From an uncultured Candidatus Saccharibacteria bacterium (GTDB taxonomy: Bacteria > Patescibacteriota > Minisyncoccia > Phycocordibacterales > UBA2100), in the NCBI GenBank assembly GCA_964584225.1, contig CAZOZG010000001.1:21652-85651 (forward strand): a stretch of 64,000 nucleotides of DNA, in the 5' to 3' direction. A program made the position numbers and the translations under genes. Under the pieces are notes generated by a model. It worked only from the letters and a program-made list of their open reading frames with translations, was not told where the DNA came from and ran no database searches. Position 1 is the stretch's first letter. Each line of letters starts with the position of its first letter. Below, piece by piece: positions 5,469 to 63,872 of the stretch.

Positions 5469-5502
5469 CAGGTTGAGTGTCTGCTATAGTTTTCATCCCA
5501 GT

Positions 5503-6642
5503 ATGAATGACATACCAATATCTACTCGGTGGTTAAACGAAGCTGCTGACACCACAAATCAGTCAATTGCTCAAAATGTTTATCTGATCCATTGTCCCAA
5601 AACGCAAAGCAAGGGCACTGGTTTCGTGATCCCGACTGGTCATATTGTAACCAACTGGCACGTTATTAAAGATTGCGGAGCTAATGAGATAAAAGCCATA
5701 TCAACCAACGGTACGCAAATCGACTTTTCGAGCCTCATTGCAGACGAAAACCGAGATCTCGCTGTTCTCAAACCAACCATAGATTTAGGAGGTGGTTTAG
5801 AAATCCATGACGAAACCGAAAAAGTTCAAACAAAAGTATTAACGTGGGGACACCCGCTCGCATATAACGGACCTTCTCCGATTCTTTCCGTAGGCTACAT
5901 CGCTGGTTTTAATGAATACAAGAAAAATGCAACTGCGCCCGTGGTTAAGCGGTACGTCATCAACGGAGCCTTTAATCCTGGAAACTCAGGCGGACCTCTC
6001 CTCGCGGATCGAACAGCTAAAGTTGTTGGTGTGGTAGTTGCAAAACACGCGCCGATTCCGGATTTTCTACAGGCTGCTCTCGATGCCCTCAACAATAACA
6101 AGTCAGGATTCATGTACACAGCTTCGCATAATGGCGTGAGTAAAGGCTCGTTCTCTGAGGCTCAGCTAGTCGGCATGCTGCTGGATCATCAAAGAAAACT
6201 GACTCAGGTGATGATTGGAGAGGCCATATCCAGCTCTGAGCTGATAGCTTTTCTACAAGAAAGCAAAATTTTTCCCGAGAATAATGATATTCGTGGCTTG
6301 TCGGCAATATTTACGCGGTTTCTGAATTCAGTCTCAGACTTGACTGACAAATTTTATGATACTTTCGGGTTGTTTCTTGTTGTCGGGGGAAGTTTGCTGG
6401 CAGCAATGGCTATAGGCGAATTTCCAGGTCACTCAAGAATAGGCACTGATTCTGGCGAATACAGCATCATCGTAATGAAGCATCCAGTTTGGTTAAAATT
6501 GGGACTCATCGCCGTTGTGGTTGGATTTATCGTTCAGCTTTCGGACAACCTGATGACTGTTCATAAATTAGGTGGAAAAAGACTTTACTGGGCTTTAGGT
6601 GCCCTGTTAGTTTATTTGATACTTTTTGTAATGGCGAATTAG
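5503..6642 (+). CDS. trypsin-like serine peptidase (S1 family) with C-terminal transmembrane region; low-GC gene
   Basis: TNWHV (His), DLAVLK (Asp) and GNSGGPLL (Ser) motifs; two C-terminal hydrophobic helices; conspicuously AT-rich compared with neighbours; no SD. Confidence 0.55.
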   Translation: MNDIPISTRWLNEAADTTNQSIAQNVYLIHCPKTQSKGTGFVIPTGHIVTNWHVIKDCGANEIKAISTNGTQIDFSSLIADENRDLAVLKPTIDLGGGLEIHDETEKVQTKVLTWGHPLAYNGPSPILSVGYIAGFNEYKKNATAPVVKRYVINGAFNPGNSGGPLLADRTAKVVGVVVAKHAPIPDFLQAALDALNNNKSGFMYTASHNGVSKGSFSEAQLVGMLLDHQRKLTQVMIGEAISSSELIAFLQESKIFPENNDIRGLSAIFTRFLNSVSDLTDKFYDTFGLFLVVGGSLLAAMAIGEFPGHSRIGTDSGEYSIIVMKHPVWLKLGLIAVVVGFIVQLSDNLMTVHKLGGKRLYWALGALLVYLILFVMAN

Positions 6643-6693
6643 TCTAAATCGGCGATTACGAAAACTGTAAGTTCAATTTGGTATAGTGGCGGG

Positions 6694-7149
6694 ATGAATA
6701 TTCTCAAACAATGGGTGTGGCCGGTGGTGGCGGGGTTTGTGGTGGCGTCGATAATCATGCTGATTTTTGAATGGATCAATCATTATTTGTTTCCGTTGCC
6801 GGGAGGACTGGACCCGATGGATACGGCTGCAGTGCAGGCTTTTACCGCATCCTTGCCGTGGACGGTGTACATTCTCGTATTTGTCGGCTGGGCATTCGGC
6901 GCATTTGAAGGCGGCTGCACGACCGCGTGGCTCGGGAAGGGTAAGCAAATTCAACTGGTATCGGTGCTTGCCGCGATCTTGGTGGCGGCCGGCACATTCG
7001 ACATGACCGTACTCGGATTCCCCATGATTGCAATAGTCCTCGGCATCCTCGTCCTTGCGGCTTTTCCATACCTTGGCCGCCTCGCGATGAATACCTTTAT
7101 GAAAAGAAAAATGGCAGCGATGGCGGCGACCAATACTTCACAAGTATAA
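6694..7149 (+). CDS. hypothetical integral membrane protein
   Basis: 151 aa with 4 hydrophobic helices. Confidence 0.45.
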   Translation: MNILKQWVWPVVAGFVVASIIMLIFEWINHYLFPLPGGLDPMDTAAVQAFTASLPWTVYILVFVGWAFGAFEGGCTTAWLGKGKQIQLVSVLAAILVAAGTFDMTVLGFPMIAIVLGILVLAAFPYLGRLAMNTFMKRKMAAMAATNTSQV

Positions 7150-7154
7150 AAAGG

Positions 7155-7188
7155 AAAGACCGCGGCGAGATTCGCCGCGGTCTTTGTC
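7155..7188. terminator. bidirectional hairpin (gaccgcggcga-gat-tcgccgcggtc)
   Basis: Sits between convergent genes 6694-7149 (+) and 7194-7574 (-). Confidence 0.5.
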
Positions 7189-7193
7189 GGGGA

Positions 7194-7574
7194 TTACGAA
7201 GCCTTGTTCAATTGCACAGCTGCATTGTGCACGAGGCAGATGTTGGGAATGAGACCCGAAAGCAGCATCTCGCGCGGAGACTTATTGCCGAGCTCCGCAA
7301 GCGGTGCTCTGAGCCATTCTGTCAGCGGCTTGCGCTTGTTGAAACGCCGATCAAGCTGTTCCCGGATGTCGATAATGGTGCCGACGAGTTGGATCTCGCT
7401 CATCACGGGGCAATGAAGCAGTTCCGTTTTCACCGCTCCGAGTTCGGACTTTCGCCTGATCCGTTCGAAAAAGACGCGTGCGATCTGGGTCGGCGCGAAG
7501 CCGAGGTGCTTGAGGGATTCGAATGCAGTATCGATACGATTTGCAAACGACACTTTGGGGGTACGTGCTGGCAT
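7194..7574 (-). CDS. Xre-like/DUF2384-like (antitoxin ParS/MbcA-type C-terminal domain) protein, module copy 1
   Basis: C-terminal W...LGNKSPREMLLSG pattern resembles the DUF2384 domain. An aaggagag SD precedes the start. Paralog of 12971-13408. Confidence 0.5.
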   Translation of the reverse strand: MPARTPKVSFANRIDTAFESLKHLGFAPTQIARVFFERIRRKSELGAVKTELLHCPVMSEIQLVGTIIDIREQLDRRFNKRKPLTEWLRAPLAELGNKSPREMLLSGLIPNICLVHNAAVQLNKAS

Positions 7575-18818: not shown

Positions 18819-20963
18819 ATGCGCCTGCGTTACGCACTCATCGGTTCACTTCTCCTCATGCCGCTCGTGGCATTTGCGGGAGGAAAAGGCGGCTACGCGC
18901 AAGGCTACTACCAGGGCTACTACGCACCGCCGTGTCATGACCCGTACTACTATTGTACTGGCAATGATTTGTACGAAAAATTGACCGACGACACCGACCA
19001 ATTCGTCAAAACGTGCGCCAATGGTTGTAACAGTGCGACAGGTGCGTGTATTGACGAAAACCCACCGCAGCCCGTGACCTACACGCCGCCAAGCTGCACG
19101 ATCACATTCGACAAAAATCCCGTGGCACCCGGAGAAAGTACGACCATGCATTGGAGTTCCAGCAATGCGTATTCGATGTACATCAATACGGTTGGTTATG
19201 TCGACCCGTCCGGCTCGGCAACGGTGAACGTCAATCAGACCACCGACCTTTCGGGCGTTGCGACTGGATACAATGCGCCCGCAGGAGCGCCAGCGCCAAC
19301 AAATCAGACGAGCGCGCCGCCGCCCCCGTCGAACACCGTTACCTTCACGACACCGGGCACGTACGAATACACCTGGACGGCACCGACTGGCGTCACGCAA
19401 GTGCACGCGACAGTCGTCGGCGGCGGCGGCGGCGGCGCGGGCGGCCAGGCGCCCGACGACGATGGAGGCTGCGATTGTATTTTGGGCTCGGGCGGCGGGG
19501 CGGGTGGCGCACAGATTAATGAAACCATCAGCGTGACGCCAGGTCAGACGTATCAAGTTATTGTCGGACGAGGTGGTCTCGGTGGTATTCATCGCTCGGT
19601 GTCGTACTGCCCGAGTACCTTCCCCGGCGCGAACGGTGGTGATTCGTCGTTTGGCACGCTCGTAGCGCATGGAGGACAAGCAGGATCCGGCATTTACACA
19701 GGCGGAGCTGGTGGCACGCCAGGCGGGACTGCGGGCTGCGGCGGCACACTCTACTCTGGCGGCTCGAGCTGCGGCGGCACGAACGCCACTTCTCACGGAG
19801 CTGGCGGCACGGGCGGCGGCTGCTACGTCAACGGAGGTAATGGCGCTGATGGCTACGTTTCAATCTCGTGGGACTCGCCTGCGCCTTCTACCGAAACGCC
19901 ACCACCCAACAGCGTGTCTGTCTCGTGTGCGGCAGTGCTCACAACTGATGCCTCACTCGCGCCGTCGGCCCGCATCAGAGCTGACTCAGTCATTGTTGCG
20001 CTTGGTGATTCGATTGGCGTCCACGCCGATTACACCGTCGGCACAGGTGATACCTTAGGATCATCGCGTATCGATTCGCCAGAAGGTAACGCAGTGACCG
20101 GTAGTTCTGCGCTTGCGCATCGCGACTACAGCTTTGCTCCGGCGGTCACCGGTCTTTACACGTTCTTTGCTCGACTCGCGAGCGCAAAATTCCCGACACT
20201 CAAGACATACGATTCGGTCGGGGTACAAGTCTCAGAGAACACGGCGTGTGGCAGCGGTCAGTATTTCGCGACTGATCAGCCCTACGGTGGAGAATGTATT
20301 TGTAAAATAAATAACGCGTTGCCGATCAATGGGCAGTGCGAGTCGTCGTGCACGCTCGGCCAGCACTCCTCAGGCGGCGTATGCTTGTGCGACAACAATG
20401 ACACTGCCCCCGTTTTTGGTGAGTGTCATATGTGCACGGTGGGTACGCCAGTGTGCGCCGGGCCCGATGTCGATGGTGACAGCATCGGTGACAGCATCGC
20501 GCACATTTCAAATGCGCTCACATGTGCCGTAGATACTAGCAACCTCACTGCCTGCAGCAGCGGCTATCACTGCGTATCGGGTCAATGCACACATATGCCA
20601 CCGACTGCGTACTTCCGCGCGCTTCCTGGTGTTGTCGCGAAAGGTAACGCGTCGTCGCTTGCGTGGTTTGCCGCTGGCGTGCAGCCAAGCTCGTGCTCGG
20701 TCACGGGCCCCAACGGTCAAGCCTTTAGTTCGGTCGCGATTGGATCGGCACAAGCCTCCGGCAGTAGCACCGGCGCATGCTCGAGTGCGAACACAAGTTG
20801 CCCGCTCGGCTCTGTGTGTTTGGGGACGCAGTGCATCAACGCGCAACCGACAGCGGCTATCACGTCGCGCAGCACGTTCAATCTTGCGTGCACCGGGCTC
20901 GATGGCACTCCGCTGCGTCAAAGTGTGACGATTGGTATCGCGCCCACACATAGTGAGCACTAA
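18819..20963 (+). CDS. large secreted glycine-rich cell-surface protein (714 aa)
   Basis: Signal peptide; Cys module; CTITFDKNP Ig-like domain; Gly-rich beta-type domain (TPGTYEYTWTAPTGVTQVHATVVGGGGGG...VSISW); C-terminal Ig-like domain ending PTHSEH. Confidence 0.7.
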   Translation: MRLRYALIGSLLLMPLVAFAGGKGGYAQGYYQGYYAPPCHDPYYYCTGNDLYEKLTDDTDQFVKTCANGCNSATGACIDENPPQPVTYTPPSCTITFDKNPVAPGESTTMHWSSSNAYSMYINTVGYVDPSGSATVNVNQTTDLSGVATGYNAPAGAPAPTNQTSAPPPPSNTVTFTTPGTYEYTWTAPTGVTQVHATVVGGGGGGAGGQAPDDDGGCDCILGSGGGAGGAQINETISVTPGQTYQVIVGRGGLGGIHRSVSYCPSTFPGANGGDSSFGTLVAHGGQAGSGIYTGGAGGTPGGTAGCGGTLYSGGSSCGGTNATSHGAGGTGGGCYVNGGNGADGYVSISWDSPAPSTETPPPNSVSVSCAAVLTTDASLAPSARIRADSVIVALGDSIGVHADYTVGTGDTLGSSRIDSPEGNAVTGSSALAHRDYSFAPAVTGLYTFFARLASAKFPTLKTYDSVGVQVSENTACGSGQYFATDQPYGGECICKINNALPINGQCESSCTLGQHSSGGVCLCDNNDTAPVFGECHMCTVGTPVCAGPDVDGDSIGDSIAHISNALTCAVDTSNLTACSSGYHCVSGQCTHMPPTAYFRALPGVVAKGNASSLAWFAAGVQPSSCSVTGPNGQAFSSVAIGSAQASGSSTGACSSANTSCPLGSVCLGTQCINAQPTAAITSRSTFNLACTGLDGTPLRQSVTIGIAPTHSEH

Positions 20964-21473: not shown

Positions 21474-24329
21474 ATGAAACACGTCATACACAATCTGTCA
21501 GTCGTCGTCCTTGGTCTCGGTTTCCTCATCGTGCCTTCGCTTCTGTATGCATATGGCGAAGGGAATTACTACAGCGAGGGGTATTACTATAGCCAATCGT
21601 ATTACGAAGGATTTTATTACAGCCAGGGTTCATACTCATCCAACGCGAAAAGTTGTGATCAGACATTTTCAACACCCGGTCCCGGTACATTTACTGTCCC
21701 AGCAGGTGTCACATCGCTTCGAGTAGTCGCAGTCGGCGGTGGCGGTGGCGGTGGCGCGGGTGCCGGCGGTTGGGGAAGTGGCGGTGGCGGTGGTTGCAGC
21801 GGGGCGGTAGTGGGAAACACGCTCACCGTTACACCTGGGCAAGCAATCCCAGTCTATGTTGGTTATGGCGGAGCAGGAGGTAATGGCGCCGGTCAGTGCA
21901 CTATCTCAGGGTTTCCATGGTGCGGTTCGTATAATCCAAGCACAAATGGTTCTACAGGCGGTGATTCTGGGTTTGGCTCAATCGTTGCGCACGGCGGAAG
22001 CTGGGGAAGGACGGGATTTTACAATCTGTTCAATCAATATCCGGGTGGTAGTGGAGGCGGCTCTGGCGGTGGCGGGGGAGGAAACGGCTGGCCAGGGTTT
22101 TATGCACAAGCTGGAAATGGAGGAATGGCGGGCGGACAGACAAATAGCCAAGGTGCCGGTGGATATTGCACGGGAGGTGGTTGGGGCTGGAACGGTACGT
22201 CGCTCATCAAACAGGTCCCGTATGCAGCTGGCCAGGGGGGCACTGTCGGCGGCGGGTACTACGGTGGCGGCGGTGGCGGCGGACTCATTTTGAACGGCAG
22301 CAGCATCAAGGGCGGTGACGGCCAGTCAAGCCCCGGTAACGGCGGCGTCGGCTACGGAGCGGGCGGCGGCGGTTCGAATCTCGACAACACTGGCGTCGGC
22401 GGCAGTGGGGCACAAGGCATAGTCTACGTTGAATGGGATCCATCTTCGTCTGGTTCGTGTTCTGCGCCACCACCACCCCCTCCGCCGACGGCGCAATGCT
22501 CAATCACATTTGATAAAAATCCAATCAATTTCGGCGATGGCACTACTATTCATTGGACGTCGAACGGAGGTGATCTCTACATCAACAACATCGGATACGT
22601 GAATGCAACAGGGACGGCCGTCGTCCAGCCAGCGACGACGACTGATTATTCAGGAGTTGTCTCCTCCAGCACCTCACTGGCATTCGCGCCGTCTCAGCGA
22701 GGAAAAGTCGCCGGCGCCGGGTCGCAATCGTACATAACGCCGGGCACCTATCAGTTCACGATTCCGAATTACACCGGGACGCTCACGGCCACAGTAAACG
22801 GCGCCGGGGGAGCAGGCGGCTGGGGAGGTTGCGGCGTCGATTCCGGTGGATCAAATCAGTGTCTATATGGCGCAGGCCAAGGAGTCGCATCTGGTTCAGG
22901 CGAGTCGTCTTCATTTGGGTCGGCCATGGCGGGTGGCGGCGGAAATGGTGCCGAAGGTGGGAGGGGTATTACTAGCGACCCTTGTAATGGAGGACCCGGC
23001 GCAGATGGCAACCCGGGAACAGGGACTGTCTCTGGCGGAGGCGCTCTCGGCGGCGGAGGGGGCGATGGATACACAGGAGGATGGTGCAACGGAGGAAAAG
23101 GAGGCACGGGAGGATCTGGAGGTAAGACGACTCAAACATTCACTACGTCTACACTTGCACCCGGGTCCACTGTGACAGTCGTCGTTGGTGCAGGTGGCAT
23201 CGGCTGGGTGGGGTATTGCAATCAGACTTGTGCCGGTTCTGGCCAAAACGGCTCCGTCTCAATCTCCTGGACAGACGCATCAAACCCACCTCCACCCACC
23301 TGCTCCAACGGTCTCAATATCAGCCAATATCCCAGTTGCTCTTGCCCGAGCGGGCAGTCCCAAAGTGGTTCGACGTGTGTGGCGCCCGCGGCACCGAAAG
23401 TTGTTGCAACCTGCCCCGTCACCCTCACCGTCAACAAACCCACAACTCCCACTGCACACATCAGTGCCGATTTCACGAAGCTCACCGTGGGTGAAACCAC
23501 CGGGATCCACGCAGACTTCTCAGCGGGCTCGGGAGATGCAATCGCGGAAGACAACATCGATTCGCCGGAGGGGACGGGCCTTGGTGCGACGACCAACCCT
23601 GATTCGCGCAAAGACATCACCTTCACCGCGTCCACGACGGGGACCTACACCTTCTACGCGCGCATGCGCACGGCAAATTTTCCCGAGTGGAAGTCGTACG
23701 ACAGTGTCACGATCACGGTCTCACCGTCGGCTGAATGCAATACGAACAACGACTGCGCGACCGATGAAATTTGTTCGACATCATCGATGTGCGAATTCCT
23801 CGATTGCGGTGTCGATACCAACATGCATGCAGAAAATCACGAGTGTGTCTGTGATGCCAATTACGCACTCGGCAGCGACAATATCTGCCACCTCGAATGC
23901 ATCGATGCATTTATCTGTGCCAACGCCGACGGCACGCCAGACCCGGGTGGCACCTACAGCGCTCACCAGGATACGAGCTGCACGCTCGGCGCACCGCAGT
24001 TATGTCAGTACGGATGTCTCAATGGCATTTGTGAAAGTCCAACACCGGCCTTTACCTTCAGAATTGTCCCAAGCGCAGTCGTCAAAGGAAACACGACGAC
24101 AATCATCTGGAATGCGACGCATGTGAGTTCCTGTACACTCACTGGTGACAACACAGACGCGTGGAGTTGCGACGATACTGCCTCCTGCACGACGCTTCAT
24201 ACCGTCACCACCGCTCCGATCCAGGGCAAGACGACCTACACACTTTCGTGTCTGCCGCTTGCCGGTCAGCCAGCGATTCCTGATCAAAAGAAGGCAGTCA
24301 CTGTCACGCCCACGCATAGCGAACACTAG
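21474..24329 (+). CDS. giant secreted glycine-rich cell-surface protein (951 aa), paralog of 18819-20963
   Basis: Signal peptide plus Tyr-rich low complexity; CSITFDKNP domain; two Gly-rich domains; PPPP linker; shared central domain (IDSPEG...YTFYARM); Cys-rich EGF-like segment; C-terminal domain ending PTHSEH. Confidence 0.7.
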   Translation: MKHVIHNLSVVVLGLGFLIVPSLLYAYGEGNYYSEGYYYSQSYYEGFYYSQGSYSSNAKSCDQTFSTPGPGTFTVPAGVTSLRVVAVGGGGGGGAGAGGWGSGGGGGCSGAVVGNTLTVTPGQAIPVYVGYGGAGGNGAGQCTISGFPWCGSYNPSTNGSTGGDSGFGSIVAHGGSWGRTGFYNLFNQYPGGSGGGSGGGGGGNGWPGFYAQAGNGGMAGGQTNSQGAGGYCTGGGWGWNGTSLIKQVPYAAGQGGTVGGGYYGGGGGGGLILNGSSIKGGDGQSSPGNGGVGYGAGGGGSNLDNTGVGGSGAQGIVYVEWDPSSSGSCSAPPPPPPPTAQCSITFDKNPINFGDGTTIHWTSNGGDLYINNIGYVNATGTAVVQPATTTDYSGVVSSSTSLAFAPSQRGKVAGAGSQSYITPGTYQFTIPNYTGTLTATVNGAGGAGGWGGCGVDSGGSNQCLYGAGQGVASGSGESSSFGSAMAGGGGNGAEGGRGITSDPCNGGPGADGNPGTGTVSGGGALGGGGGDGYTGGWCNGGKGGTGGSGGKTTQTFTTSTLAPGSTVTVVVGAGGIGWVGYCNQTCAGSGQNGSVSISWTDASNPPPPTCSNGLNISQYPSCSCPSGQSQSGSTCVAPAAPKVVATCPVTLTVNKPTTPTAHISADFTKLTVGETTGIHADFSAGSGDAIAEDNIDSPEGTGLGATTNPDSRKDITFTASTTGTYTFYARMRTANFPEWKSYDSVTITVSPSAECNTNNDCATDEICSTSSMCEFLDCGVDTNMHAENHECVCDANYALGSDNICHLECIDAFICANADGTPDPGGTYSAHQDTSCTLGAPQLCQYGCLNGICESPTPAFTFRIVPSAVVKGNTTTIIWNATHVSSCTLTGDNTDAWSCDDTASCTTLHTVTTAPIQGKTTYTLSCLPLAGQPAIPDQKKAVTVTPTHSEH

Positions 24330-26130: not shown

Positions 26131-26157
26131 GCCCGCTATCGCGGGCGTTTCGTTTTT
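26131..26157 (+). promoter_or_regulatory. leader hairpin plus U-tract (gcccgc-tatc-gcgggc gtttcgttttt) in the rplC 5' UTR, putative attenuator
   Basis: Terminator-like structure between promoter and ATG; analogous hairpin before rpsS. Confidence 0.35.
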
Positions 26158-26163
26158 AAAGAT

Positions 26164-26760
26164 ATGAAATTCATGCTCGGCACCAAAGGCAAAATGACCC
26201 AGGTCTTCGACGACGCTGGTGCCGTCTGGGCTGCGACGATCGTAAACGCCGGTCCGTTGACCGTCACGCAGGTGAAGACGACGGAGAAAGATGGGTATGC
26301 ATCAGCGCAAGTGGGTTTTGGCATGAAGAAAGAAAAGCGCGTCAACCAAGCGCAAAAGGCAAAGCCGTTTCAATACATGCGCGAATTTACAGATAAAACA
26401 CTGCCGGAAATGGGCGCGAAAATCGACGCGTCGATTTTCGCGCCAGGCGATGTTGTCGCCGTTTCCGCGATCTCAAAAGGCAAAGGCTTCCAGGGCGTCG
26501 TGAAGCGCCACGGTTTTGCAGGCGGTCCTCGCTCGCACGGCCAGAAGAATAAAGAGCGCGCGCCCGGATCAATCGGCGGTGGTGCACGAGCTGGCGCACA
26601 CGTCGCAAAAGGCATGCGCATGGCCGGCCGTATGGGCAGTGATCGCATCACCATCAAAAACCTCAAAGTGCTGCAAGTCGACGCAGCGTCAAACACGATT
26701 GTGATTTCAGGCGCGATTCCCGGTCGTCCGGGCACGCTCGTTGAAATCGTAGGAAAATAA
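26164..26760 (+). CDS. rplC: 50S ribosomal protein L3
   Basis: 198 aa; QVFDDAG...KGKGFQGVVKRHGF motif typical of L3. Confidence 0.95.
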   Translation: MKFMLGTKGKMTQVFDDAGAVWAATIVNAGPLTVTQVKTTEKDGYASAQVGFGMKKEKRVNQAQKAKPFQYMREFTDKTLPEMGAKIDASIFAPGDVVAVSAISKGKGFQGVVKRHGFAGGPRSHGQKNKERAPGSIGGGARAGAHVAKGMRMAGRMGSDRITIKNLKVLQVDAASNTIVISGAIPGRPGTLVEIVGK

Positions 26761-26938
26761 TGAGCGAAGCGAATATATTTTCCACGACCCAGCACCAATT
26801 TTGAAACTCGAGAAAAATATGCAAAACTATCCGACTCAGTTGAATACAGCGAAAGGAGGCACGAACTTCTGGCACTCAAAATTGGTGCTGGGTGCAAGAG
26901 CTTCTAAGCTCGCTGTGCTCGCTAAGAATCTCTAGCAT
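26761..26938 (+). ncRNA. conserved structured intergenic element, copy A (5' GAGCGAAGCGAA; 15-bp inverted repeat cccagcaccaatttt/aaaattggtgctggg; 3' block aagagcttctaagctcgctgtgctcgctaagaatctctagcat)
   Basis: Paralogous to 36489-36646 with compensatory change of the long inverted repeat; ends exactly at the rplD ATG. Confidence 0.4.
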
Positions 26939-27604
26939 ATGGACGCACCTATCTACAACGCACAAGGAAAGAAAGGAGGCTCGGTAAAGCTCCCCGACAA
27001 CGTCTTTGGCATTGCGTGGAATGATTCTTTGATGCACCAAGTTGTCACCTCGATGCAAAGCAACGCACGCGGCCCTGTCGCGCACGCCAAAGGTCGCGGC
27101 GACGTCCGCGGTGGTGGCAAAAAGCCATGGCAGCAGAAGGGCACTGGTCGCGCTCGTCACGGCTCGATCCGCTCGCCCATTTGGAAAGGCGGTGGTGTCA
27201 CACACGGTCCGATCAAAGACAAGAATTATACCCGGGAAATTCCAAAAAAAATGCGCGCAAAGGCACTCTTCATGGCACTCTCGCGTAAACTCGCCGACAA
27301 CGAAATCGTCTTCGTCGACTCGTTCGGTATTACTGCGCCGAAGACGGCAGTTGCAAAGAAAGCACTCGTCGCACTCTCGAAGAGTGGTTTTGAAAAGCTT
27401 TCGAAGAAAAAGAATGCTGCGCTCATTGCGCTTCCCGATCCTTCAGAGGCGGCGATGAAGAGTTTCCGCAACATCGGCAATGTCGACGTCATGAGCGTCA
27501 GAAACCTCAACCCAGTGGCTGTCATGGGCAGCTCCTACCTCGTCGTCGAAAATCCTGAAGCTGCCGTCGCGATTCTCGCCACACGTGCAACAAATAAAAA
27601 ATAA
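26939..27604 (+). CDS. rplD: 50S ribosomal protein L4
   Basis: 221 aa; KKPWQQKGTGRAR motif. Confidence 0.95.
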   Translation: MDAPIYNAQGKKGGSVKLPDNVFGIAWNDSLMHQVVTSMQSNARGPVAHAKGRGDVRGGGKKPWQQKGTGRARHGSIRSPIWKGGGVTHGPIKDKNYTREIPKKMRAKALFMALSRKLADNEIVFVDSFGITAPKTAVAKKALVALSKSGFEKLSKKKNAALIALPDPSEAAMKSFRNIGNVDVMSVRNLNPVAVMGSSYLVVENPEAAVAILATRATNKK

Positions 27605-27606
27605 GT

Positions 27607-27984
27607 ATGGCCTGGTTTAAAAACGACAAAAAAGAAGAAAAGAAAGAGACAGCGACGCCGAAAGCCGCGACGCCTGTATCAGCAGCGACATCATCGACCA
27701 AAGCCGATCTCGCGCACGTCCTGAAGAATCCGCGCATCACCGAAAAGGCGACGATGCATGGGGCACAGGGCGTCTACACCTTCGACATCGCTGAAAACGC
27801 CACAAAGCGCGAAATCTTCGCCGCCGTCAAAAAGTTTTACGCCGTCACGCCGCGCATGGTGCGCGTTGTTCGTGTGCCCGCGAAGATGAAACGCAGCATG
27901 CGCACTGGCAAGGTGGGCATGAAAAGCGGTGGCAAAAAAGCATACGTTTACCTCAAAAAAGGCGAACAGATAACACTCACATAA
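27607..27984 (+). CDS. rplW: 50S ribosomal protein L23 with Lys/Ala-rich N-terminal extension
   Basis: Core VLKNPRITEKA...YTFDIAENATKREI matches L23. Confidence 0.9.
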   Translation: MAWFKNDKKEEKKETATPKAATPVSAATSSTKADLAHVLKNPRITEKATMHGAQGVYTFDIAENATKREIFAAVKKFYAVTPRMVRVVRVPAKMKRSMRTGKVGMKSGGKKAYVYLKKGEQITLT

Positions 27985-27985
27985 T

Positions 27986-28822
27986 ATGAAAACCTATCGA
28001 CCAGTCACCAAATCTGAGCGTCAGCACACCTCGATCGAATACTCGAAGCTCTTGAGCGGTCACAAGCCTCATAAGCCTTTGGTGGGCGGCAAACGCCACA
28101 CCGGCGGCCGCAATGCGCACGGCAGGATCACGATGCGTCACAAAGGTGGCGGTCACAAGAAAAACTACCGATCGGTCGACTTCACGTTCGACAAAAAGAA
28201 CGTTCCCGCGCGCATCGCGACGATCGAATACGACCCGTTCCGCTCGGCGTTCATTGGACTTGCGATTTACGCCGATGGCGAGAAGCGCTATGTCATCGTC
28301 CCGCAGCGCGTAAAGGTCGGCGACACCTTCCTCGTTTCTGAAACCGCGCCGGTGAAGCCTGCGAATCGCCTACCGCTTGGGAAAATTCCGGTGGGTACGT
28401 TTGTCTACAACATCGAGCTGAAGCCGGGCGCTGGCGGCGTCCTCGCGCGCTCGGCGGGCAATTACTGCGAAATCATCGCGCAAGATGCTGGCTACACACA
28501 CCTCAAGATGCCGTCGACCGAAGTCCGCAAAGTGATCGGCACTGCTTGGGCATCCGTCGGCGAAGTTTCAAATCAAGAACACTCGCTCGTCGTCATCGGC
28601 AAAGCGGGCCGAACGCGCTGGATGGACGTGCGCCCGACGGTGCGTGGTACTGCTATGAACCCGGTGGATCACCCGCACGGTGGAGGTGAAGGTAAGCAAG
28701 GCCGCGGCAGCCGTCGCCAAAAGACTATCTGGGGTAAACCAGCCGGCAAAGGTCAAAAGACAAGGCGGCCGAAGAAATACTCCAACGTCTTCATTGTTTC
28801 TCGCAGAAAGGTTGGCAAATAG
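27986..28822 (+). CDS. rplB: 50S ribosomal protein L2
   Basis: 278 aa; GGGHKKNYR and HPHGGGEG motifs. Confidence 0.97.
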   Translation: MKTYRPVTKSERQHTSIEYSKLLSGHKPHKPLVGGKRHTGGRNAHGRITMRHKGGGHKKNYRSVDFTFDKKNVPARIATIEYDPFRSAFIGLAIYADGEKRYVIVPQRVKVGDTFLVSETAPVKPANRLPLGKIPVGTFVYNIELKPGAGGVLARSAGNYCEIIAQDAGYTHLKMPSTEVRKVIGTAWASVGEVSNQEHSLVVIGKAGRTRWMDVRPTVRGTAMNPVDHPHGGGEGKQGRGSRRQKTIWGKPAGKGQKTRRPKKYSNVFIVSRRKVGK

Positions 28823-28854
28823 TCTCTCGATTCGCGCATGATACACTGCGCGAG

Positions 28855-30060
28855 ATGGCGAATTCGTTCGAGGATTTTCAGCTGAAAAGGAAGGAGCGCA
28901 ACGAAGATTTCGACGCCGAACTCGACTCGCTGCAGCAGCGCCTCGGGTACCGCTTTAAAAACAAAGAGCTTTTGATACAGGCGCTCACCGCGAGAGGTTT
29001 CGCCGAGCAGATTGGTGAGCGACACAACACGAGACTCGAAGCGCGCGGCGACGATATTTTGGAGCGGCGAGTCAATGCATGGCTCACACAACACCCGTTT
29101 GGTTCCTATCGAGGGTATATCTATTTAAACGGTTTTCTCAACAGCAACCTGTATCTTTCATCGGCCGGCGTTCGTTTGGGCATTGATCGCGGCGTCCGCG
29201 TGAATGAGGCGCGTGCACAGAGTCAAAGTGTCGAGACGAAAATACGGATGACCGCCGACGCCATGGAAGCGATCATCGCGGCGATCGAAGACGATGGTGG
29301 CAGACCTGCCTCGATCGACTTTATGGAGGCGCACTTGTTGCCCGAATCGGTGTCGGATTCGCCGCTTGGGCGTTTTGTTGGGCTATGCTCCGGTGATCCG
29401 CACGTGATCGAGCAGACATTCAACTCGCTCTTGCGTGGACGAGCAAAACTAGAAATGACTAAACAGGGGAGGGATTTTCATGCAGTCATCAAGGGCGTCG
29501 ACCTGCCCGACGTTCCTTCCAGCCACTCCGACGCTGCACACGCCGCTCATCGAGCAGTCATGACATTTCTCCGGCAAAATCCGTGGGTGCTGTGGGGTTT
29601 CGACGGGCCGGTGAGTCAGCGTGCACCTTCAATGGCATGGGGCGCATACCCGGAGTACGTCGAGCAATCTCTGCCGAAAGAAGTGCGAACGCCCGAATAC
29701 ATCGAAGATCCATACCTTTCGGTCCCTCATCGCGAGGAAGAAGGATGGCCAGATATCGAAATTCCTGCGCTCTTGCCTGAATCAACTCGAGATCGCGGCC
29801 CCTACATCGACAAACTTCGCTGTGTGCTCGAAGGTAAAACTGTCGTCGTGCGTTCGAAAAAAATCGGCAAGGAACAGTTTCCTCGCTACGCATTCTATGT
29901 CGACAAAAATTTTCTCACGACTGTCGAAGGACGTCGCACCTTGAACGACGCCGCGAGTCAGGCCTTACGTGAGCTCGCTGAGATCGAGGCAGAGGGAATA
30001 GAGGATAAAGAAGCAGACGAATTGCCGGTAGAAAATTCACCGGAACCAGAAAGTCAATAA
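28855..30060 (+). CDS. atypical RNase III-like protein (N-terminal ribonuclease III catalytic domain plus ~230-aa C-terminal extension with possible dsRBD-like end)
   Basis: NTRLEARGDD matches the ERLEFLGD signature with E and D retained. MTADAMEAIIAAIEDDGG matches ADALEAL(I)GAIYLDGG. It is 401 aa versus about 230 aa for canonical bacterial RNase III. Confidence 0.55.
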   Translation: MANSFEDFQLKRKERNEDFDAELDSLQQRLGYRFKNKELLIQALTARGFAEQIGERHNTRLEARGDDILERRVNAWLTQHPFGSYRGYIYLNGFLNSNLYLSSAGVRLGIDRGVRVNEARAQSQSVETKIRMTADAMEAIIAAIEDDGGRPASIDFMEAHLLPESVSDSPLGRFVGLCSGDPHVIEQTFNSLLRGRAKLEMTKQGRDFHAVIKGVDLPDVPSSHSDAAHAAHRAVMTFLRQNPWVLWGFDGPVSQRAPSMAWGAYPEYVEQSLPKEVRTPEYIEDPYLSVPHREEEGWPDIEIPALLPESTRDRGPYIDKLRCVLEGKTVVVRSKKIGKEQFPRYAFYVDKNFLTTVEGRRTLNDAASQALRELAEIEAEGIEDKEADELPVENSPEPESQ

Positions 30061-30061
30061 A

Positions 30062-30096
30062 AAGAGAAAGGCCCAGGATTTCCCCGGGCCTTTACG
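30062..30096. terminator. hairpin aaaggccc...gggccttt between convergent genes
   Basis: 8-bp stem with flanking A/T runs on both strands. Confidence 0.4.
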
Positions 30097-30108
30097 GTCG
30101 GAACTGCG

Positions 30109-30360
30109 TTAACGAAAAAGCGACAAGGCTCCCGGGGGCAGCAGGTCGTCGCCAACGCGGATCGGTTTGTCTTCCTGATGTGCCTTCACCAACAGGTGAT
30201 GAATTCGAATCGCATTCCTGTACACCTCAGATTCTGTCGCGGCGTCGGTCCACTGATCGAGATCCTGAGCCATGAGGTCAGTTGCGGGCGAAACGGATAT
30301 CGTTTTCTTGACCTTTTTAGAATTTCTCCCGACCCCAACGGCTTGTCGTTGCTTTGCCAT
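30109..30360 (-). CDS. ribbon-helix-helix (CopG/Arc/MetJ-like) DNA-binding protein
   Basis: 83 aa; KKTISVSPATDLMAQDLDQWTDAATESEVYRNAIRIHHLL fits the beta-strand plus two-helix RHH pattern; aaggag SD 7 nt upstream. Confidence 0.5.
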   Translation of the reverse strand: MAKQRQAVGVGRNSKKVKKTISVSPATDLMAQDLDQWTDAATESEVYRNAIRIHHLLVKAHQEDKPIRVGDDLLPPGALSLFR

Positions 30361-30407
30361 GGTTCAACTCCTTTGCCGAACAGCAGGCTAACATGGGCCT
30401 TAGAAAA

Positions 30408-30436
30408 TTGACAGAGAGAGCCATTTCCTATACATT
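30408..30436 (+). promoter_or_regulatory. sigma70-like promoter TTGACA-17-TACATT upstream of rpsS
   Basis: Restart promoter after the RNase III/RHH insertion. Confidence 0.45.
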
Positions 30437-30443
30437 GTGCCTA

Positions 30444-30461
30444 CCCGCGACGCGGGATTTT
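30444..30461 (+). promoter_or_regulatory. leader hairpin plus U-tract (cccgc-gac-gcggg atttt) in the rpsS 5' UTR
   Basis: Same architecture as the rplC leader hairpin. Confidence 0.3.
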
Positions 30462-30469
30462 AAATTGAT

Positions 30470-30826
30470 ATGAGTCGCAGTTTGAAGAAAGGCCCCTACG
30501 TGGACCAGAAATTGATGAAGAAAGTCGGCGCTCGAAAGTCGGGTGCGGGCTCTATCAAGACGTGGGCGCGCGCGAGCTCGATCGCGCCGGAGTTTGTCGG
30601 CTACACGTTTTCTGTACACAACGGTAAGAGCTTCGAGGAAGTGTTCGTGACCGAAGACATGGTGGGGCATCGCCTCGGTGAATTCGCCCCGACGACCAAA
30701 TTCATCAAGCACGGTGGTCGCATGCAGAAAGAAGCAGAGATGGCAGCGAAGGCCGCTGAGATCGCTTCTGCGCAAGCTGCAAAAGCAACCGCCGAGACGG
30801 CAAAGCCAGGTGCTGGTGCAAAATAA
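30470..30826 (+). CDS. rpsS: 30S ribosomal protein S19 with Ala/Lys-rich C-terminal extension
   Basis: [11 protein letters not shown]...TFSVHNGK core. Confidence 0.95.
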
Positions 30827-30829
30827 TAT

Positions 30830-31201
30830 ATGAAAGCGCTTTTGAAAAACTATCATCAGTCGCCGCGCAAGGTTCGCCTTGTCGCAGATTTGATTCGCGG
30901 CAAGAGCGTGCCCGCCGCGCGCGCTGCTCTTATGTACTTGCCGAAGAAGTCCTCGCCAGCTATTTCCAAATTGCTCGACTCCGCAGTCGCCAACGCGCGC
31001 GCGGCGGGCGCACATCCTGAGAATCTTTTCGTGAAGAAAATCACTGTCGACAAAGGTATGGTCATGCGCCGCTACCGCCCCTTTGCGCGCGGCCGCGCAG
31101 GTTCTGTACGAAAGACCATGAGTATCGTCAATCTTGAGCTCGCGCAAGGGAGCGCGCCCATGAAGGCAAAAAAGGCCAAGAAGCAAGTCGAGGCAAAATA
31201 A
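30830..31201 (+). CDS. rplV: 50S ribosomal protein L22
   Basis: 123 aa; SPRKVRLVADLIRGK motif. Confidence 0.93.
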   Translation: MKALLKNYHQSPRKVRLVADLIRGKSVPAARAALMYLPKKSSPAISKLLDSAVANARAAGAHPENLFVKKITVDKGMVMRRYRPFARGRAGSVRKTMSIVNLELAQGSAPMKAKKAKKQVEAK

Positions 31202-31202
31202 T

Positions 31203-31877
31203 ATGACTCACACAGTACATCCATACGCACACCGTCTCGGCATCATTCGCGACTGGAAGAGTCGTTGGTTTGCCAAGACACCGGCTGAGTACCGCCAGAA
31301 TGTCATGACCGACGCAGCAATTCGCCGCTTCCTCAAGAAGCGCTTGCGCGGCAGCTATGTGACCGCAGTCGAAATCGAGCGCAACGAAAAGAACATCCGC
31401 GTCTTGGTGAAGACATCGCGCCCTGGCCTTATCATCGGTCGTGGTGGCGAGGGAAGCACGAAGCTCACGAAAGAAATTGAGACGATTGCGCGCAAAGTCC
31501 CGGGTGCCACCAAGAAACCCGTGCGCCTCGATATCGAGGAGGTCCGCTCGCCAGAATCACAAGCGCCTGTTGTTGCATACATGATCGCCGAAGGTCTCGA
31601 AAAGCGACAGACCTTCCGTCGTGTTTTGAAGCAGACGGTAGAAAAAGTGATGGCCAATCGCGACGTGCAAGGTGTGCGCATCGCAATCGCCGGTCGCTTG
31701 GGCGGCGCAGAAATGTCACGCACCGAAGAGATCAAGCGTGGCCGCGTACCGCTCCAGACGTTGCGTGCCGATATCGATTTCGCGAAAGAGGAAGCGTATC
31801 TGCCGTACGGCGTGATTGGCGTCAAAGTCTGGATCTACCGCGGAGAAATTTTCGATAAAAACAAGGCACAAAAATAG
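31203..31877 (+). CDS. rpsC: 30S ribosomal protein S3
   Basis: 224 aa; KH domain plus S3 C-terminal domain. Confidence 0.95.
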   Translation: MTHTVHPYAHRLGIIRDWKSRWFAKTPAEYRQNVMTDAAIRRFLKKRLRGSYVTAVEIERNEKNIRVLVKTSRPGLIIGRGGEGSTKLTKEIETIARKVPGATKKPVRLDIEEVRSPESQAPVVAYMIAEGLEKRQTFRRVLKQTVEKVMANRDVQGVRIAIAGRLGGAEMSRTEEIKRGRVPLQTLRADIDFAKEEAYLPYGVIGVKVWIYRGEIFDKNKAQK

Positions 31878-33980: not shown

Positions 33981-34008
33981 AACGGACGCCTACGAGCATC
34001 CGTTTTTC
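33978..34008. terminator. hairpin aaaacgga...tccgttttt after rplE
   Basis: 8-bp stem plus T5. Confidence 0.45.
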
Positions 34009-34208
34009 CAGAACAAGTGATAATACTGCGTCCATTTTCTGAGGAGCTTTGCTTTAGCGCGTCTTTTTGCCTTCCGCTTGCGCTTTCTTAATTTCACCTC
34101 GACGCGGAGCAATCCGGTATAAGCGACGATCAGCTTCTTTGTATAATAGATGTGCGGTGCGCCGCACTCATCCACCCAGCCGACGTATGCGTACAGCTTC
34201 TTTGGCAT
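33990..34208 (-). CDS. hypothetical small basic protein (72 aa)
   Basis: ORF inside the rplE-rpsN insertion; Lys/Arg-rich tail. Confidence 0.3.
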   Translation of the reverse strand: MPKKLYAYVGWVDECGAPHIYYTKKLIVAYTGLLRVEVKLRKRKRKAKRRAKAKLLRKWTQYYHLFWKNGCS

Positions 34209-34328
34209 TGAGATCTCCCGTGGCTGAGCCGATAGTGCACGTAAGTGTTCCCTAGGTCAAATACCTCTCGCTATATAAAAAAGAAACGGGCGCTTTCGGG
34301 CGCCCGTTTTGTTTCGGATCAGCGGCAT

Positions 34329-34751
34329 TCACTGTGCAAGCAATTCAATCGCGTTGTTGAGAGCGATAATTGCTTTGCCCTGGGCGTCATTGAGCTTAGC
34401 CTGGAGCTTTGCCTGTGACGCTTTCGAAGCATTGCGCGCGGCTTGTGCCGCGTTGAGCCGCAATCGTGCTGTTTTCCATGCTGCACGAGCCTCCTCCACG
34501 GCTTTGTGGCAAGGGATTGCTTGCACGGTCGACAGTTCACCGCAACTCTCATTCAGCTGCACGAACGTCGCATCCGTGTACATGAGATACAGTGTTGCCA
34601 GATACACGTTTCCTGCGCCATCCATGAAATGGACGGATCCGTGCATGTACCCTTGGTTGATGACGAGGGTTTGCGCGGAGGAAACAGTTGTCGTAACAAC
34701 CAGCACAATGAATGTGATGATTGCAAAGAGCGGGCGAGTAAGCATGTTCAC
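34329..34751 (-). CDS. hypothetical secreted protein (signal peptide plus Ala/Gln-rich coiled C-terminus)
   Basis: 140 aa; followed on the minus strand by hairpin plus T-tract at about 34275-34310. Confidence 0.45.
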   Translation of the reverse strand: MNMLTRPLFAIITFIVLVVTTTVSSAQTLVINQGYMHGSVHFMDGAGNVYLATLYLMYTDATFVQLNESCGELSTVQAIPCHKAVEEARAAWKTARLRLNAAQAARNASKASQAKLQAKLNDAQGKAIIALNNAIELLAQ

Positions 34752-34999
34752 GTCTCCCTGTTGTTACATCGCGTGCAAGGATTATACCACATATATACTT
34801 ATAGCGCAAGTGCTTTTGTTTGACTTCAGAAGTGCCATCGCGTATAGTGGCAGAGCCTCGTAGGGGGCCTTGTTTTTAGCCAAAAAATGGCTGTTACCCA
34901 AAGTTTCTGAGGGGAACAAGGTCACGGTTGGGAAGCCCATAATCCTTCGCGTAAGCAAAGGATGCAGGCTCTCAAAATCTTCCTATTTGGCGCACTGCA

Positions 35000-36646: not shown

Positions 36647-37270
36647 ATGAACGCTGAACCAAACATGCAAGAGGGAGGAATGACAGAGCCGGCCGTCGAG
36701 GTGCCGGTGCGGGAGGTGAGCATGCCGGAGCCGCAGGCTTCGGAGACGAAACCATTTGAACGACGTGGTGGTTTCCGCGAACGCGGCGGTGATCGCCGTG
36801 GTGGCCGCCCGCCTCGAGGCGGTGGCCGCGAGGGCCAGCGCAGCGAATTTGCGCAAAAATTGATCGGCATCCGCCGCGTGGCGCGTGTCATGGCGGGCGG
36901 CCGTCGTTTCAATTTCTCCGTCGGCATTGTCTTGGGCGACAAAAAGGGCCGTGTCGGTGTGGGCTTGGGCAAGGCGGCAGACACGCAGCTCGCGATTGAA
37001 AAGGCAAGCCGCGCAGCCAAGCGCAACATGCTCAACCTCAATCTCACCAAAAACCGCTCGATTCCACACAACGTCGAGGCGAAATACTGCGCGTCAGTCG
37101 TCGAAATCCGTCCGGCCGCGGGCCGCGGATTGGTTGCTGGCTCTTCGGTCCGAACGGTCTTGGAGCTCGGTGGAGTCTCCGATGTCACTGCAAAATTGCT
37201 CTCCCGCAGCCACAATCCGGTCAACAACGCACGCGCAGCAATCGAAGCCTTGCGCCAAATTTCCAAATAA
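36647..37270 (+). CDS. rpsE: 30S ribosomal protein S5 with Arg/Gly-rich N-terminal extension
   Basis: S5 dsRBD-like and C-terminal domains; rplR is followed directly by rpsE and rplO, with no rpmD. Confidence 0.93.
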   Translation: MNAEPNMQEGGMTEPAVEVPVREVSMPEPQASETKPFERRGGFRERGGDRRGGRPPRGGGREGQRSEFAQKLIGIRRVARVMAGGRRFNFSVGIVLGDKKGRVGVGLGKAADTQLAIEKASRAAKRNMLNLNLTKNRSIPHNVEAKYCASVVEIRPAAGRGLVAGSSVRTVLELGGVSDVTAKLLSRSHNPVNNARAAIEALRQISK

Positions 37271-37273
37271 TCT

Positions 37274-37726
37274 ATGCAGCTTCACTCAATCACACGTCCC
37301 TCGACACTGAAGCGCCCGTACCGCCGAGTCGGTCGCGGTCAATCTTCAACGCGTGGCAAACAATCAGGCCGTGGCGGCAAAGGGCAGACGGCGCGCGCCG
37401 GTCACAAAATTCGTCCGGCACTTCGCGACATCATCAAGAAAATCCCGAAGCGCCGTGGATTTGGTAAAAACCGTGGTCGCACTGTCGTCGGGACGCGTCT
37501 TCCGACGTTTGCAATTCCGCTCGCCCGCCTCGAAGCGGCGTTTGATAGCGGGGCAGAAGTGACGCTCGCGGCACTCCGAGAGCGCGGCATTCTCCACGCT
37601 CGGAAACACATGCCGGTCAAAGTCGTCGGCGGTGGTGAACTCTCGAAAAAACTTTCACTCAAAGGCTTGAGCGTTTCTGCAGGAGTTCGCGCGAGCGTCG
37701 AAAAAGCAGGTGGCAGCATCGCCTAA
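37274..37726 (+). CDS. rplO: 50S ribosomal protein L15
   Basis: 150 aa; Gly/Arg-rich N-terminus. Confidence 0.9.
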   Translation: MQLHSITRPSTLKRPYRRVGRGQSSTRGKQSGRGGKGQTARAGHKIRPALRDIIKKIPKRRGFGKNRGRTVVGTRLPTFAIPLARLEAAFDSGAEVTLAALRERGILHARKHMPVKVVGGGELSKKLSLKGLSVSAGVRASVEKAGGSIA

Positions 37727-57836: not shown

Positions 57837-57971
57837 GGGTTCTCCTTTTTCCGGACAGTGAGCGAGTCTGAACAAATTCAGAGTCGGTCGCTATCTAAAG
57901 TTAGCGTGCTGGTGGCGCCGCAGAGTACTGCGGCATCCTACAAAAATATAGTCGCTTCGCTTCTTATTTTT

Positions 57972-63757: not shown

Positions 63758-63830
63758 GCGCCCGTAGCTCAACGGTTAGAGCACAGAGCTTATACCTCTG
63801 GGGTTCCTGGTTCGAATCCAGGCGGGCGTA
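63758..63830 (+). tRNA. tRNA with anticodon UAU (reads AUA; tRNA-Ile by anticodon)
   Basis: Manual cloverleaf: acceptor GCGCCCG/CGGGCGU (G1-U72 wobble); D arm GCTC-AACGGTTA-GAGC; anticodon arm CAGAG-CTTATAC-CTCTG; variable loop GGGTT; T arm CCTGG-TTCGAAT-CCAGG; discriminator A; CCA not encoded. TATAAT at 63744-63749. Confidence 0.8.
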
Positions 63831-63872
63831 CATGAAACAAAATAGTGCCTACGCACTGTTTTGTTTCATGTA
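63831..63872 (+). terminator. long hairpin catgaaacaaaatagtgc-ctac-gcactgttttgtttcatg after the tRNA
   Basis: About 18-bp nearly perfect stem directly after the tRNA 3' end. Confidence 0.55.

Follow-up and report, generated by a model that had tools for sequence, protein, structure and literature searches.

A divergent RNase III-family protein with two predicted dsRBD-like domains, encoded in a variable slot of a ribosomal protein gene cluster

Introduction

RNase III enzymes have a central place in the maturation of rRNA, in mRNA decay, and in the pathways of small RNAs. To our knowledge, bacterial RNase III has been regarded as uniform, made up either of one catalytic domain and one double-stranded RNA-binding domain (dsRBD), or of the bare catalytic domain of Mini-III. 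Here we describe a 401-aa RNase III-family protein encoded between the ribosomal protein genes rplB and rpsS of an uncultured Candidatus Saccharibacteria bacterium (assembly GCA_964584225.1, contig CAZOZG010000001.1). The gene lies in a stretch of 64,000 nucleotides that was analysed as a whole (the window; all positions refer to it unless stated otherwise). An annotation of the window made from the letters alone (the original prediction) had described the gene as an atypical RNase III-like gene and had seen hints of a specialised RNA-processing function. Our analysis indicated that the protein is likely to be a divergent RNase III of class-1 layout, extended by a linker and a second dsRBD-like domain, presumably active as a nuclease, and carried as incidental cargo in a variable slot of the cluster. 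A search of the literature found no account of a bacterial clade with this layout, which is not proof of absence.

The closest described proteins are the class-1 bacterial RNase III enzymes (rnc), such as those of Aquifex aeolicus (1rc7/2nug) and E. coli (7r97), which gave the best sequence and structure matches of the 401-aa protein. These enzymes and the 401-aa protein share the four carboxylates and a layout in which an alpha-beta-beta-beta-alpha domain comes after one RNase III domain. Unlike these enzymes, the 401-aa protein fails the rnc equivalog cut-off, the ERLEFLGD signature, and the dsrm profile, adds a linker and a second dsRBD-like domain, and has a first dsRBD-like domain without the basic motif of helix alpha2. 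Bacterial RNase III is about 220-250 aa long, in line with the excess of about 170 aa that the original prediction had noted. Mucorales R3B2 and yeast Dcr1 resemble the 401-aa protein in that a single RNase III domain precedes two domains of dsRBD type, and Dcr1 (PDB 3rv0) was among the structural matches of the second such domain. R3B2 also has an atypical signature motif and fails the PROSITE signature (PMC8136814). However, both come from eukaryotes, and we detected no specific relationship in sequence to the 401-aa protein; moreover, R3B2 has lost the canonical catalytic residues and cuts single-stranded RNA (ssRNA) (PMC8136814), whereas the 401-aa protein keeps its four carboxylates.

Three further families were compared. 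Mini-III (MrnC), which matures 23S rRNA and is stimulated by ribosomal protein L3 (PMC3867540), is also a bacterial variant of the RNase III family, but it is a bare catalytic domain of about 130-150 aa without a dsRBD. A tblastn search with the B. subtilis Mini-III sequence gave no match to the 401-aa gene, and no NCBIfam Mini-III model matched; given this, the length of 401 aa, and the two extra domains, a Mini-III identity was rejected. Mitochondrial mL44 combines an RNase III-like domain with a dsRBD, its family PF22935 scored above the gathering score on the 401-aa protein, and it was found among the structural matches. Yet mL44 is a eukaryotic structural ribosomal protein, while the 401-aa protein matches PF14622 more strongly and retains catalytic residues. 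Giant viruses and iridoviruses (pithovirus, cedratvirus, largemouth bass virus) also have long RNase III proteins, which Foldseek aligned to the model over about 380-418 columns, but with identities of 12-15% and TM-scores of about 0.3, which gave no evidence of a specific relationship.

Results

An RNase III domain with its catalytic residues

The N-terminal part of the 401-aa protein (Table 1) is a true RNase III domain in which the catalytic acidic residues are retained. PF14622 (Ribonuclease-III-like) reached 42.9 bits over residues 36-163, above its gathering score of 35, and PF22935 (mL44 endonuclease-like) matched the same stretch less strongly (32 bits against 27). A phmmer search of the PDB returned the RNase III enzymes of Campylobacter, Aquifex, and E. 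coli, with a best E value of 8e-7. In the alignments to 3o2r and 1i4s, LEARGD was paired with LEFLGD, which placed E62 and D66 at Aquifex E40 and D44, and TADAMEA was paired with IGDVFEA, which placed D135 and E138 at Aquifex D107 and E110. All four metal-binding carboxylates were present in the window copy. The Nicholson review describes Aquifex E110 (E. coli E117) as essential and as the bridge between the two Mg2+ ions, with the metals positioned by the remaining carboxylates (PMC3867540). The two blocks that the original prediction had read as RNase III signatures were borne out by these alignments, and neither of the outcomes that it had named as refuting it, an N-terminal region that is no RNase III domain or misaligned catalytic residues, was observed.

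Structure comparison led to the same assignment. In the full-length AlphaFold2 model the catalytic domain was all-helical, with pLDDT values mostly of 76-96 that fell to about 59-65 at residues 111-130. The isolated Aquifex catalytic domain (1jfz) superposed on it at an rmsd of 2.4 Å over 140 columns. When the whole model was compared with the PDB by Foldseek, all of the 50 top matches were RNase III-domain proteins, including bacterial RNase III, Dicer/DCL, Drosha, Rnt1p, RTL4, and mL44. No second RNase III or Mini-III was detected in the 64-kb window by tblastn.

Two predicted dsRBD-like domains

Full-length RNase III of Aquifex, E. coli, and Thermotoga was aligned to the model over about 237 columns (E of about 1e-8). 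Because the alignments extend this far, residues 20-245 or so are predicted to have the class-1 bacterial layout, with a first alpha-beta-beta-beta-alpha unit in the position of the dsRBD. This unit consisted of a helix (182-193), strands (197-224), and a second helix (227-241) in the model, and co-aligned with the dsRBD of Aquifex RNase III at the level of the fold. It was followed by the motif PWxLWGxDGPxS, which is also found in shorter relatives (see below), and then by a linker of about 65 residues ending in the conserved EE(D/G)xWPxxExPxLLPxST (alignments A1, A2, and A4).

The second unit was placed in the full-length model as a helix (316-324), strands (330-357), and a helix (363-383). 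Residues 292-385 were also modelled alone from a nine-sequence alignment, which gave a pLDDT of 85, a pTM of 0.72, and the alpha-beta-beta-beta-alpha order (helix 26-33, three strands, and helix 72-89 in the numbering of this model), with the conserved N-terminal segment confidently placed. The tail segment GRRTLNDAASQALRELAE formed helix alpha2 of the predicted domain. Nearly all of its PDB matches, and most of the top 30 by Foldseek, were dsRBDs, among them PKR dsRBD1, mL44, Dus2, ADAR1 dsRBD3, DHX9, Staufen dsRBD5, Dcr1, HYL1, Drosha, and Dicer. The models thus point to a dsRBD-type fold, with good topological and modest statistical support. A dsRBD-like tail had been suggested in the original prediction; this stood at the level of the fold, but the tail is the second such domain, and the first one, at residues 180-245 or so, had been missed. 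Profile searches with the second-domain alignment (A3) returned matches at chance level in the PDB and none at E ≤ 0.01 among 5.8 billion proteins; the latter search also missed the domain's own family and is uninformative on other architectures.

To bind RNA, a dsRBD relies on a basic KKxAK-type motif where helix alpha2 begins, together with a GPxH-type loop. In the 401-aa protein, helix alpha2 started with HSDAAHAAH in the first domain and TLNDAASQAL in the second, and the basic motif was absent from both. The canonical RNase III rows of the same alignment had SKQEAE and KTKKAAA at this place. Judged from these residues, both domains look degenerate for classical dsRNA binding.

A very small clade

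The clade to which the protein belongs is very small. In a word-indexed search of 5.8 billion proteins, the protein itself was joined by four relatives (34-38% identity), and all further matches, at E ≥ 1e-7, were canonical RNase III. With the family profile, an exhaustive HMMER search of 1.84 billion cluster representatives gave 12 proteins with E < 1e-30. Overall, some nine sequences of the long form and some ten cluster representatives of the short form were counted among the 1.84 billion. The long forms (P0001-P0004, P0028, P0029, P0031, and P0034, plus the fragments P0005 and P0061) had in common LE..GD, NSN, T(A/S)(D/N)A.EA, and PWxLWGxDGPxS, and in their C-terminal part EEDxWP..LP..LP.ST.ERGPYIDKLR, (R)YAFY, and LNDAA.Q. 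A set of short forms of 270-307 aa (P0030, P0032, P0033, P0036-P0038, P0040, P0041, P0043, and P0060) matched the long forms up to a terminal PWxLWG motif and then ended, without the second domain; NSN and PWxLWG were common to both groups. Alignment A2 was too divergent for deriving search patterns. Searches with the clade alignment found no member in 185,579 GTDB species genomes or in JGI metagenome contigs, where only the N-terminal part of canonical RNase III was matched, and none in IMG/VR viral contigs, which gave one generic RNase III match. A single-protein query of genome contigs returned nothing.

Across the clade, E62, D66, and E138 were kept almost everywhere, E138 in at least 90% of the sequences in the clade alignments. 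The window copy is one of the few members with a complete set of carboxylates.

The rplB-rpsS gap is a variable slot

We further examined where the gene is located. The open reading frame (ORF) list agreed with the gene placement and with the insertion of about 1.6 kb given in the original prediction, with a spacing of 1,647 bp between rplB and rpsS. Two Logan contigs (L171 and L172) from the independent assembly of run SRR12313479 matched window 26813-31313 at 100% identity without gaps; they span 26813-29525 and 29497-31313 and include both junctions of the gap. A mis-assembly or chimera was ruled out by this match. The GC content of the gap (0.52-0.57) did not differ from that of its flanks, and only short matches at chance level were found when direct or inverted repeats marking a mobile element were sought around it.

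To find relatives of the host, we used the protein cluster at 90% identity that contains its S19. In one of them (L004; L2 77% and S19 93% identical), rplB and rpsS were 22 bp apart. The other (L003) was closer to the window than L004 by L2 (C-terminal 49 aa, 90%) and by L22 (88%), while its S19 (89%) and S3 (84%) identities were not above those of L004. L003 carried the 3' end of rplB (2-148 of its contig), three minus-strand genes (189, 166, and 89 aa), and then rpsS. The gap there (152-1770 of the L003 contig) corresponds to window 28823-30400, and its three genes belonged to no Pfam family and were unrelated to anything in the window. Since L003 has three unrelated genes at this place and L004 has none, the gap is a lineage-specific slot for variable cargo, whose content differs between close relatives. 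The cluster was interrupted a second time between rplE and rpsN, by about 1 kb (33981-34999) with small ORFs without a known function, such as 33990-34208 (-); in L003 the same gap (5483-7363 of its contig) held three different genes, one of them a response regulator.

Six independent contexts of long-form homologues were then compared. The neighbours were genes of unknown function (L001), argS (L002), a NUDIX/NrtR-type regulator and PRPP synthetase (L165/L166), thioredoxin/AhpC and MgtC (L167), a peptidyl-prolyl isomerase (L168), and one partial ORF of unknown function on a 1.8-kb contig (L169). None of the six had a ribosomal protein cluster around the homologue, and an all-against-all BLASTP of the ORFs from the six loci and from window 20-40 kb revealed no shared neighbour. 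Because the contents of the gap vary, the contexts of the homologues are unconserved, and the cluster is broken elsewhere as well, embedding in the operon is no evidence for a ribosome-related role. The position is an incidental placement of cargo and not a sign of ribosome-specific function, and the dedicated RNA-processing role that had been drawn from it in the original prediction was not upheld.

Transcription signals around the gene

The gene started 32 nt after the rplB stop codon. As no terminator-like site was found between that stop and the ATG (28700-28855 was searched), the gene is likely to be read through from the rplC-rplB transcript. A hairpin of 12 pairs between the convergent genes had a predicted free energy of -19.8 kcal/mol when read on the minus strand, compared with -16.4 kcal/mol for the plus strand. 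Because its T-run is on the minus strand, it looks as if it terminates the 83-aa ORF, and for the plus-strand gene it would be no more than a weak stop. The hairpin said to close the insertion therefore exists, but it would serve the gene in question weakly at best.

The separate promoter and leader hairpin that had been proposed for rpsS were found at 30408-30456. Both were conserved in L003 (1775-1826 of its contig), which had TTGACA, a 17-nt spacer, and TACATT, and after these a GC hairpin of 5 bp, whose loop differs from that in the window, and a U-run; a 19-nt core containing TACATT (CATTTCCTATACATTGTGC) was identical. Because of this conservation, the promoter-like site and the hairpin are probably functional. 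At the start of the rpsS leader, the hairpin might stabilise the 5' terminus or work in the manner of an attenuator.

The convergent 83-aa ORF

The ORF that faces the 401-aa gene had AAGGAG 7 nt upstream of its ATG, confirming the strong Shine-Dalgarno sequence reported before. This was an exception in the window, where the native genes had no Shine-Dalgarno sequence and an A/T-rich stretch (such as aaaataat) right before the ATG (examples at 26139-26163, 27961-27985, and 30805-30829). The GC content by codon position was gene-like, and the antisense frame was equally open with the same pattern. The codon-usage index was 0.57 for the 401-aa gene and 0.52 for the 83-aa ORF versus 0.63-0.73 for the flanking genes, which themselves were the reference set.

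Its earlier label as a ribbon-helix-helix (RHH) protein found no support. Among 5.8 billion proteins only the ORF itself (P0174) was returned, no Pfam family or PDB RHH structure matched at E ≤ 10, and NCBIfam, PHROGs, and PADLOC gave no support when scanned with the 82-aa translation (30109-30357). No counterpart was found in the six homologue loci by all-against-all BLASTP, and there was no similarity to the small gene adjoining rpsS in L003. The pattern KKTISVS...SEVYRNAIRIHHLL is compatible by eye with strand-helix-helix, which is a lead and not a test.

Other features of the window

The order rplV, rpsC, and rplP followed rpsS in the ORF list. Upstream, rpsJ was missing from the interval that separates tuf (9-1208) from rplC, and unrelated genes took up about 25 kb there instead; this part (1209-26163) encoded membrane proteins and very large tyrosine-rich, repeat-like proteins (e.g. 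18819-20963 and 21474-24329). Downstream (36647-37726), rplO, at 37274, directly followed rpsE (36647-37270), without an L30 gene between them. A missing L30 gene is reported for many CPR/Patescibacteria genomes, and it is because of this gene order that the window looks to be of the CPR/Patescibacteria type. A tRNA-Ile with the anticodon TAT (UAU) was found at 63758-63831. Such a tRNA is an uncommon bacterial way of reading AUA, in place of the lysidine-modified CAU tRNA. The tmRNA was identified about 28 kb from the 401-aa gene; the original prediction had placed the two close together, and a functional tie was rejected because of this distance.

Table 1. Positions of the 401-aa gene, its parts, and neighbouring features in the window
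Feature	Residues	Window position	Strand	Basis or remark
rplC		26164-26760		ORF list; cluster gene
rplD		26939-27604		ORF list
rplW		27607-27984		ORF list
rplB (ribosomal protein L2)		27986-28822	+	Pfam Ribosomal_L2_N E 8e-32, Ribosomal_L2_C E 4e-48; upstream flank of gap
401-aa RNase III-family gene		28855-30060	+	ORF; PF14622 above gathering score
RNase III catalytic domain	~20-165	28912-29349	+	Pfam 36-163; all-helical model; 1jfz match
Signature block LEARGDD	61-67	29035-29055	+	Has E62 and D66; alignments to 3o2r and 1i4s
Block ADAMEAIIAAIEDDGG	134-149	29254-29301	+	Has D135 and E138; alignments to 3o2r and 1i4s
First dsRBD-like domain (predicted)	~180-245	29392-29589	+	AlphaFold2 model; Foldseek alignments span the region
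Linker, low confidence	~250-313	29602-29793	+	pLDDT <50 at 250-265, 272-292, and 305-313
Second dsRBD-like domain (predicted)	~314-385	29794-30009	+	Domain model; Foldseek; RGPYIDKLR, RYAFYV, LNDAA(N/S)Q
Hairpin between convergent genes		30067-30093		12 pairs, then CTCTTTTTAT on minus strand
83-aa ORF, convergent		30109-30360	-	ORF list
rpsS promoter-like site TTGACA-17-TACATT		30408-30436	+	10/12 consensus matches
5-bp GC hairpin, then U-run		30444-30456	+	Start of rpsS leader; -8.1 kcal/mol
rpsS (ribosomal protein S19)		30470-30826	+	Pfam Ribosomal_S19 E 6e-32; downstream flank of gap
tmRNA		57970-58358	-	Rfam 93 bits; tag peptide ANKVARAVLSPIQLADLQPAYALVA

Discussion

We think that the 401-aa protein is most likely an active divergent RNase III, either a paralogue or a xenologue. 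Its first 245 residues or so would form one RNase III catalytic domain and a degenerate dsRBD-like domain, followed by the linker and by a second dsRBD-like domain with a conserved N-terminal extension. Because all four metal-binding carboxylates are kept, the protein is expected to be a Mg2+-dependent endoribonuclease, and by analogy with the rest of the family it would cut both strands of structured or double-stranded RNA as a homodimer. Since neither dsRBD-like domain has the basic KKxAK-type motif, the domains would more probably tune the choice of substrate or mediate protein contacts than bind dsRNA in general. The gene occupies the variable rplB-rpsS slot, where it would probably be transcribed by read-through from rplC-rplB, and rpsS and the genes downstream would be served by their own conserved promoter.

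Several observations weigh against this reading. PF00636 stayed below its gathering score (19.1 versus 27 bits), and the rnc equivalog TIGR02191 scored 43.6 bits versus a cut-off of 166.25, with a match confined to profile positions 1-139 of 219, the part that covers the catalytic domain. ERLEFLGD is the canonical RNase III signature (PROSITE PS00517). The 401-aa protein has TRLEARGD, which differs at the first, fifth, and sixth positions and keeps the catalytic E and D: T59 replaces the first glutamate of ERLE, and AR replaces FL of LEFLGD. An arginine is aligned to the acidic E64 of Aquifex. In mutational work on E. coli RNase III, however, the E38 and E65 equivalents are reported to be dispensable. 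The aromatic residue that takes part in the Aquifex dimer interface is missing from TRLEARGD, so that dimerisation is presumptive. The full-length model had a mean pLDDT of 70.9 and was built from an alignment of just 5 sequences. The best structural E value of the second domain was 4e-3, with none at 1e-3, and neither dsRBD-like segment (the first taken as residues 166-255) matched any Pfam family, including dsrm (PF00035), at E ≤ 10. Within the clade, most long forms had N at the D135 position and one had S, most members overall had one of these two residues there, and two short forms had N at the D66 position. Judged from these residues, part of the clade, including some short forms, may be catalytically weak or inactive.

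Other readings of the locus were weighed against the same evidence. Among CPR-type bacteria, rnc is generally kept as a non-redundant ribonuclease (PMC12641178), and the window is CPR-like. The protein might accordingly be the only RNase III of its lineage, a fast-evolving rnc orthologue that processes rRNA precursors and whose level is coupled to ribosome production through co-transcription with ribosomal protein genes. We regard this as rather unlikely, although the window holds no other RNase III, the gene begins 32 nt past rplB with no terminator between them, and homologues of 34-38% identity that are collinear over their full length are compatible with old vertical descent. The clade is far too rare for a lineage-wide housekeeping gene (12 proteins at E < 1e-30 among 1.84 billion representatives, and none in 185,579 GTDB species genomes), L003 carries other genes in the rplB-rpsS gap, and clade members differ at the catalytic D135 position. 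It is very unlikely, in our estimate, that the protein is mainly a non-catalytic factor that binds RNA or the ribosome on an RNase III scaffold, as mL44 does, or a nuclease specific for ssRNA, as R3B2 is. The PF22935 score (32 versus 27 bits), the structural matches to mL44, which came up for the second domain as well as for the whole protein, the degenerate signature, the variable catalytic position in the clade, the missing basic motifs, and the adjoining ribosomal protein genes would all suit such a role, as would the example of R3B2, a protein of one RNase III domain and two dsRBDs that does not fit the PROSITE signature and whose cleavage is restricted to ssRNA (PMC8136814). Against this, the window copy keeps all four carboxylates, PF14622 outscores PF22935 on the same stretch, and the ribosomal neighbourhood is conserved in no homologue.

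The 401-aa gene and the 83-aa ORF could also be seen as a horizontally acquired two-gene cassette for defence or addiction, in which the small ORF encodes an RHH-type regulator or antitoxin of the nuclease. A site that is a variable slot for cargo, a strong Shine-Dalgarno sequence on the small ORF where native genes have none, a codon-usage index below that of the flanks for both genes, and the strand-helix-helix pattern seen by eye in KKTISVS...SEVYRNAIRIHHLL speak for it. But neither protein matched PADLOC or a known PHROG function, the clade was absent from IMG/VR, none of the six homologue contexts had a comparable small partner ORF, the ORF itself had neither a detectable homologue nor an RHH profile match at E ≤ 10, the GC content was that of the flanks, and no flanking repeats were found; we consider this cassette extremely improbable. 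A wider version of the preferred reading, an active divergent RNase III carried as cargo, would make the protein the founding member of an undescribed bacterial subclass, with a substrate range unlike that of rnc (for example specific structured RNAs, ssRNA as for R3B2, or an action associated with the ribosome as for mL44) and carried as exchangeable cargo in a CPR-like ribosomal protein cluster. This is a tentative proposal and, on present evidence, an unlikely one. If it is true, the subclass would combine a catalytic domain with a degenerate dsRBD and with a further dsRBD-like domain that is extended, and its genes would be cargo in variable slots that interrupt the cluster.

The picture of RNase III would be widened by a clade of bacterial proteins that have a second dsRBD-like domain, in which the RNA-binding motifs are degenerate and one catalytic position varies. 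The architecture of one RNase III domain and two dsRBDs has otherwise been discussed for eukaryotic proteins (R3B2 and Dcr1). The clade would offer a small test case of how extra dsRBDs redirect the choice of substrate. In this lineage, the rplB-rpsS and rplE-rpsN gaps are variable cargo slots with conserved promoters from which transcription would restart, and it would therefore be wrong to read a functional link into the position of a gene within the ribosomal protein cluster.

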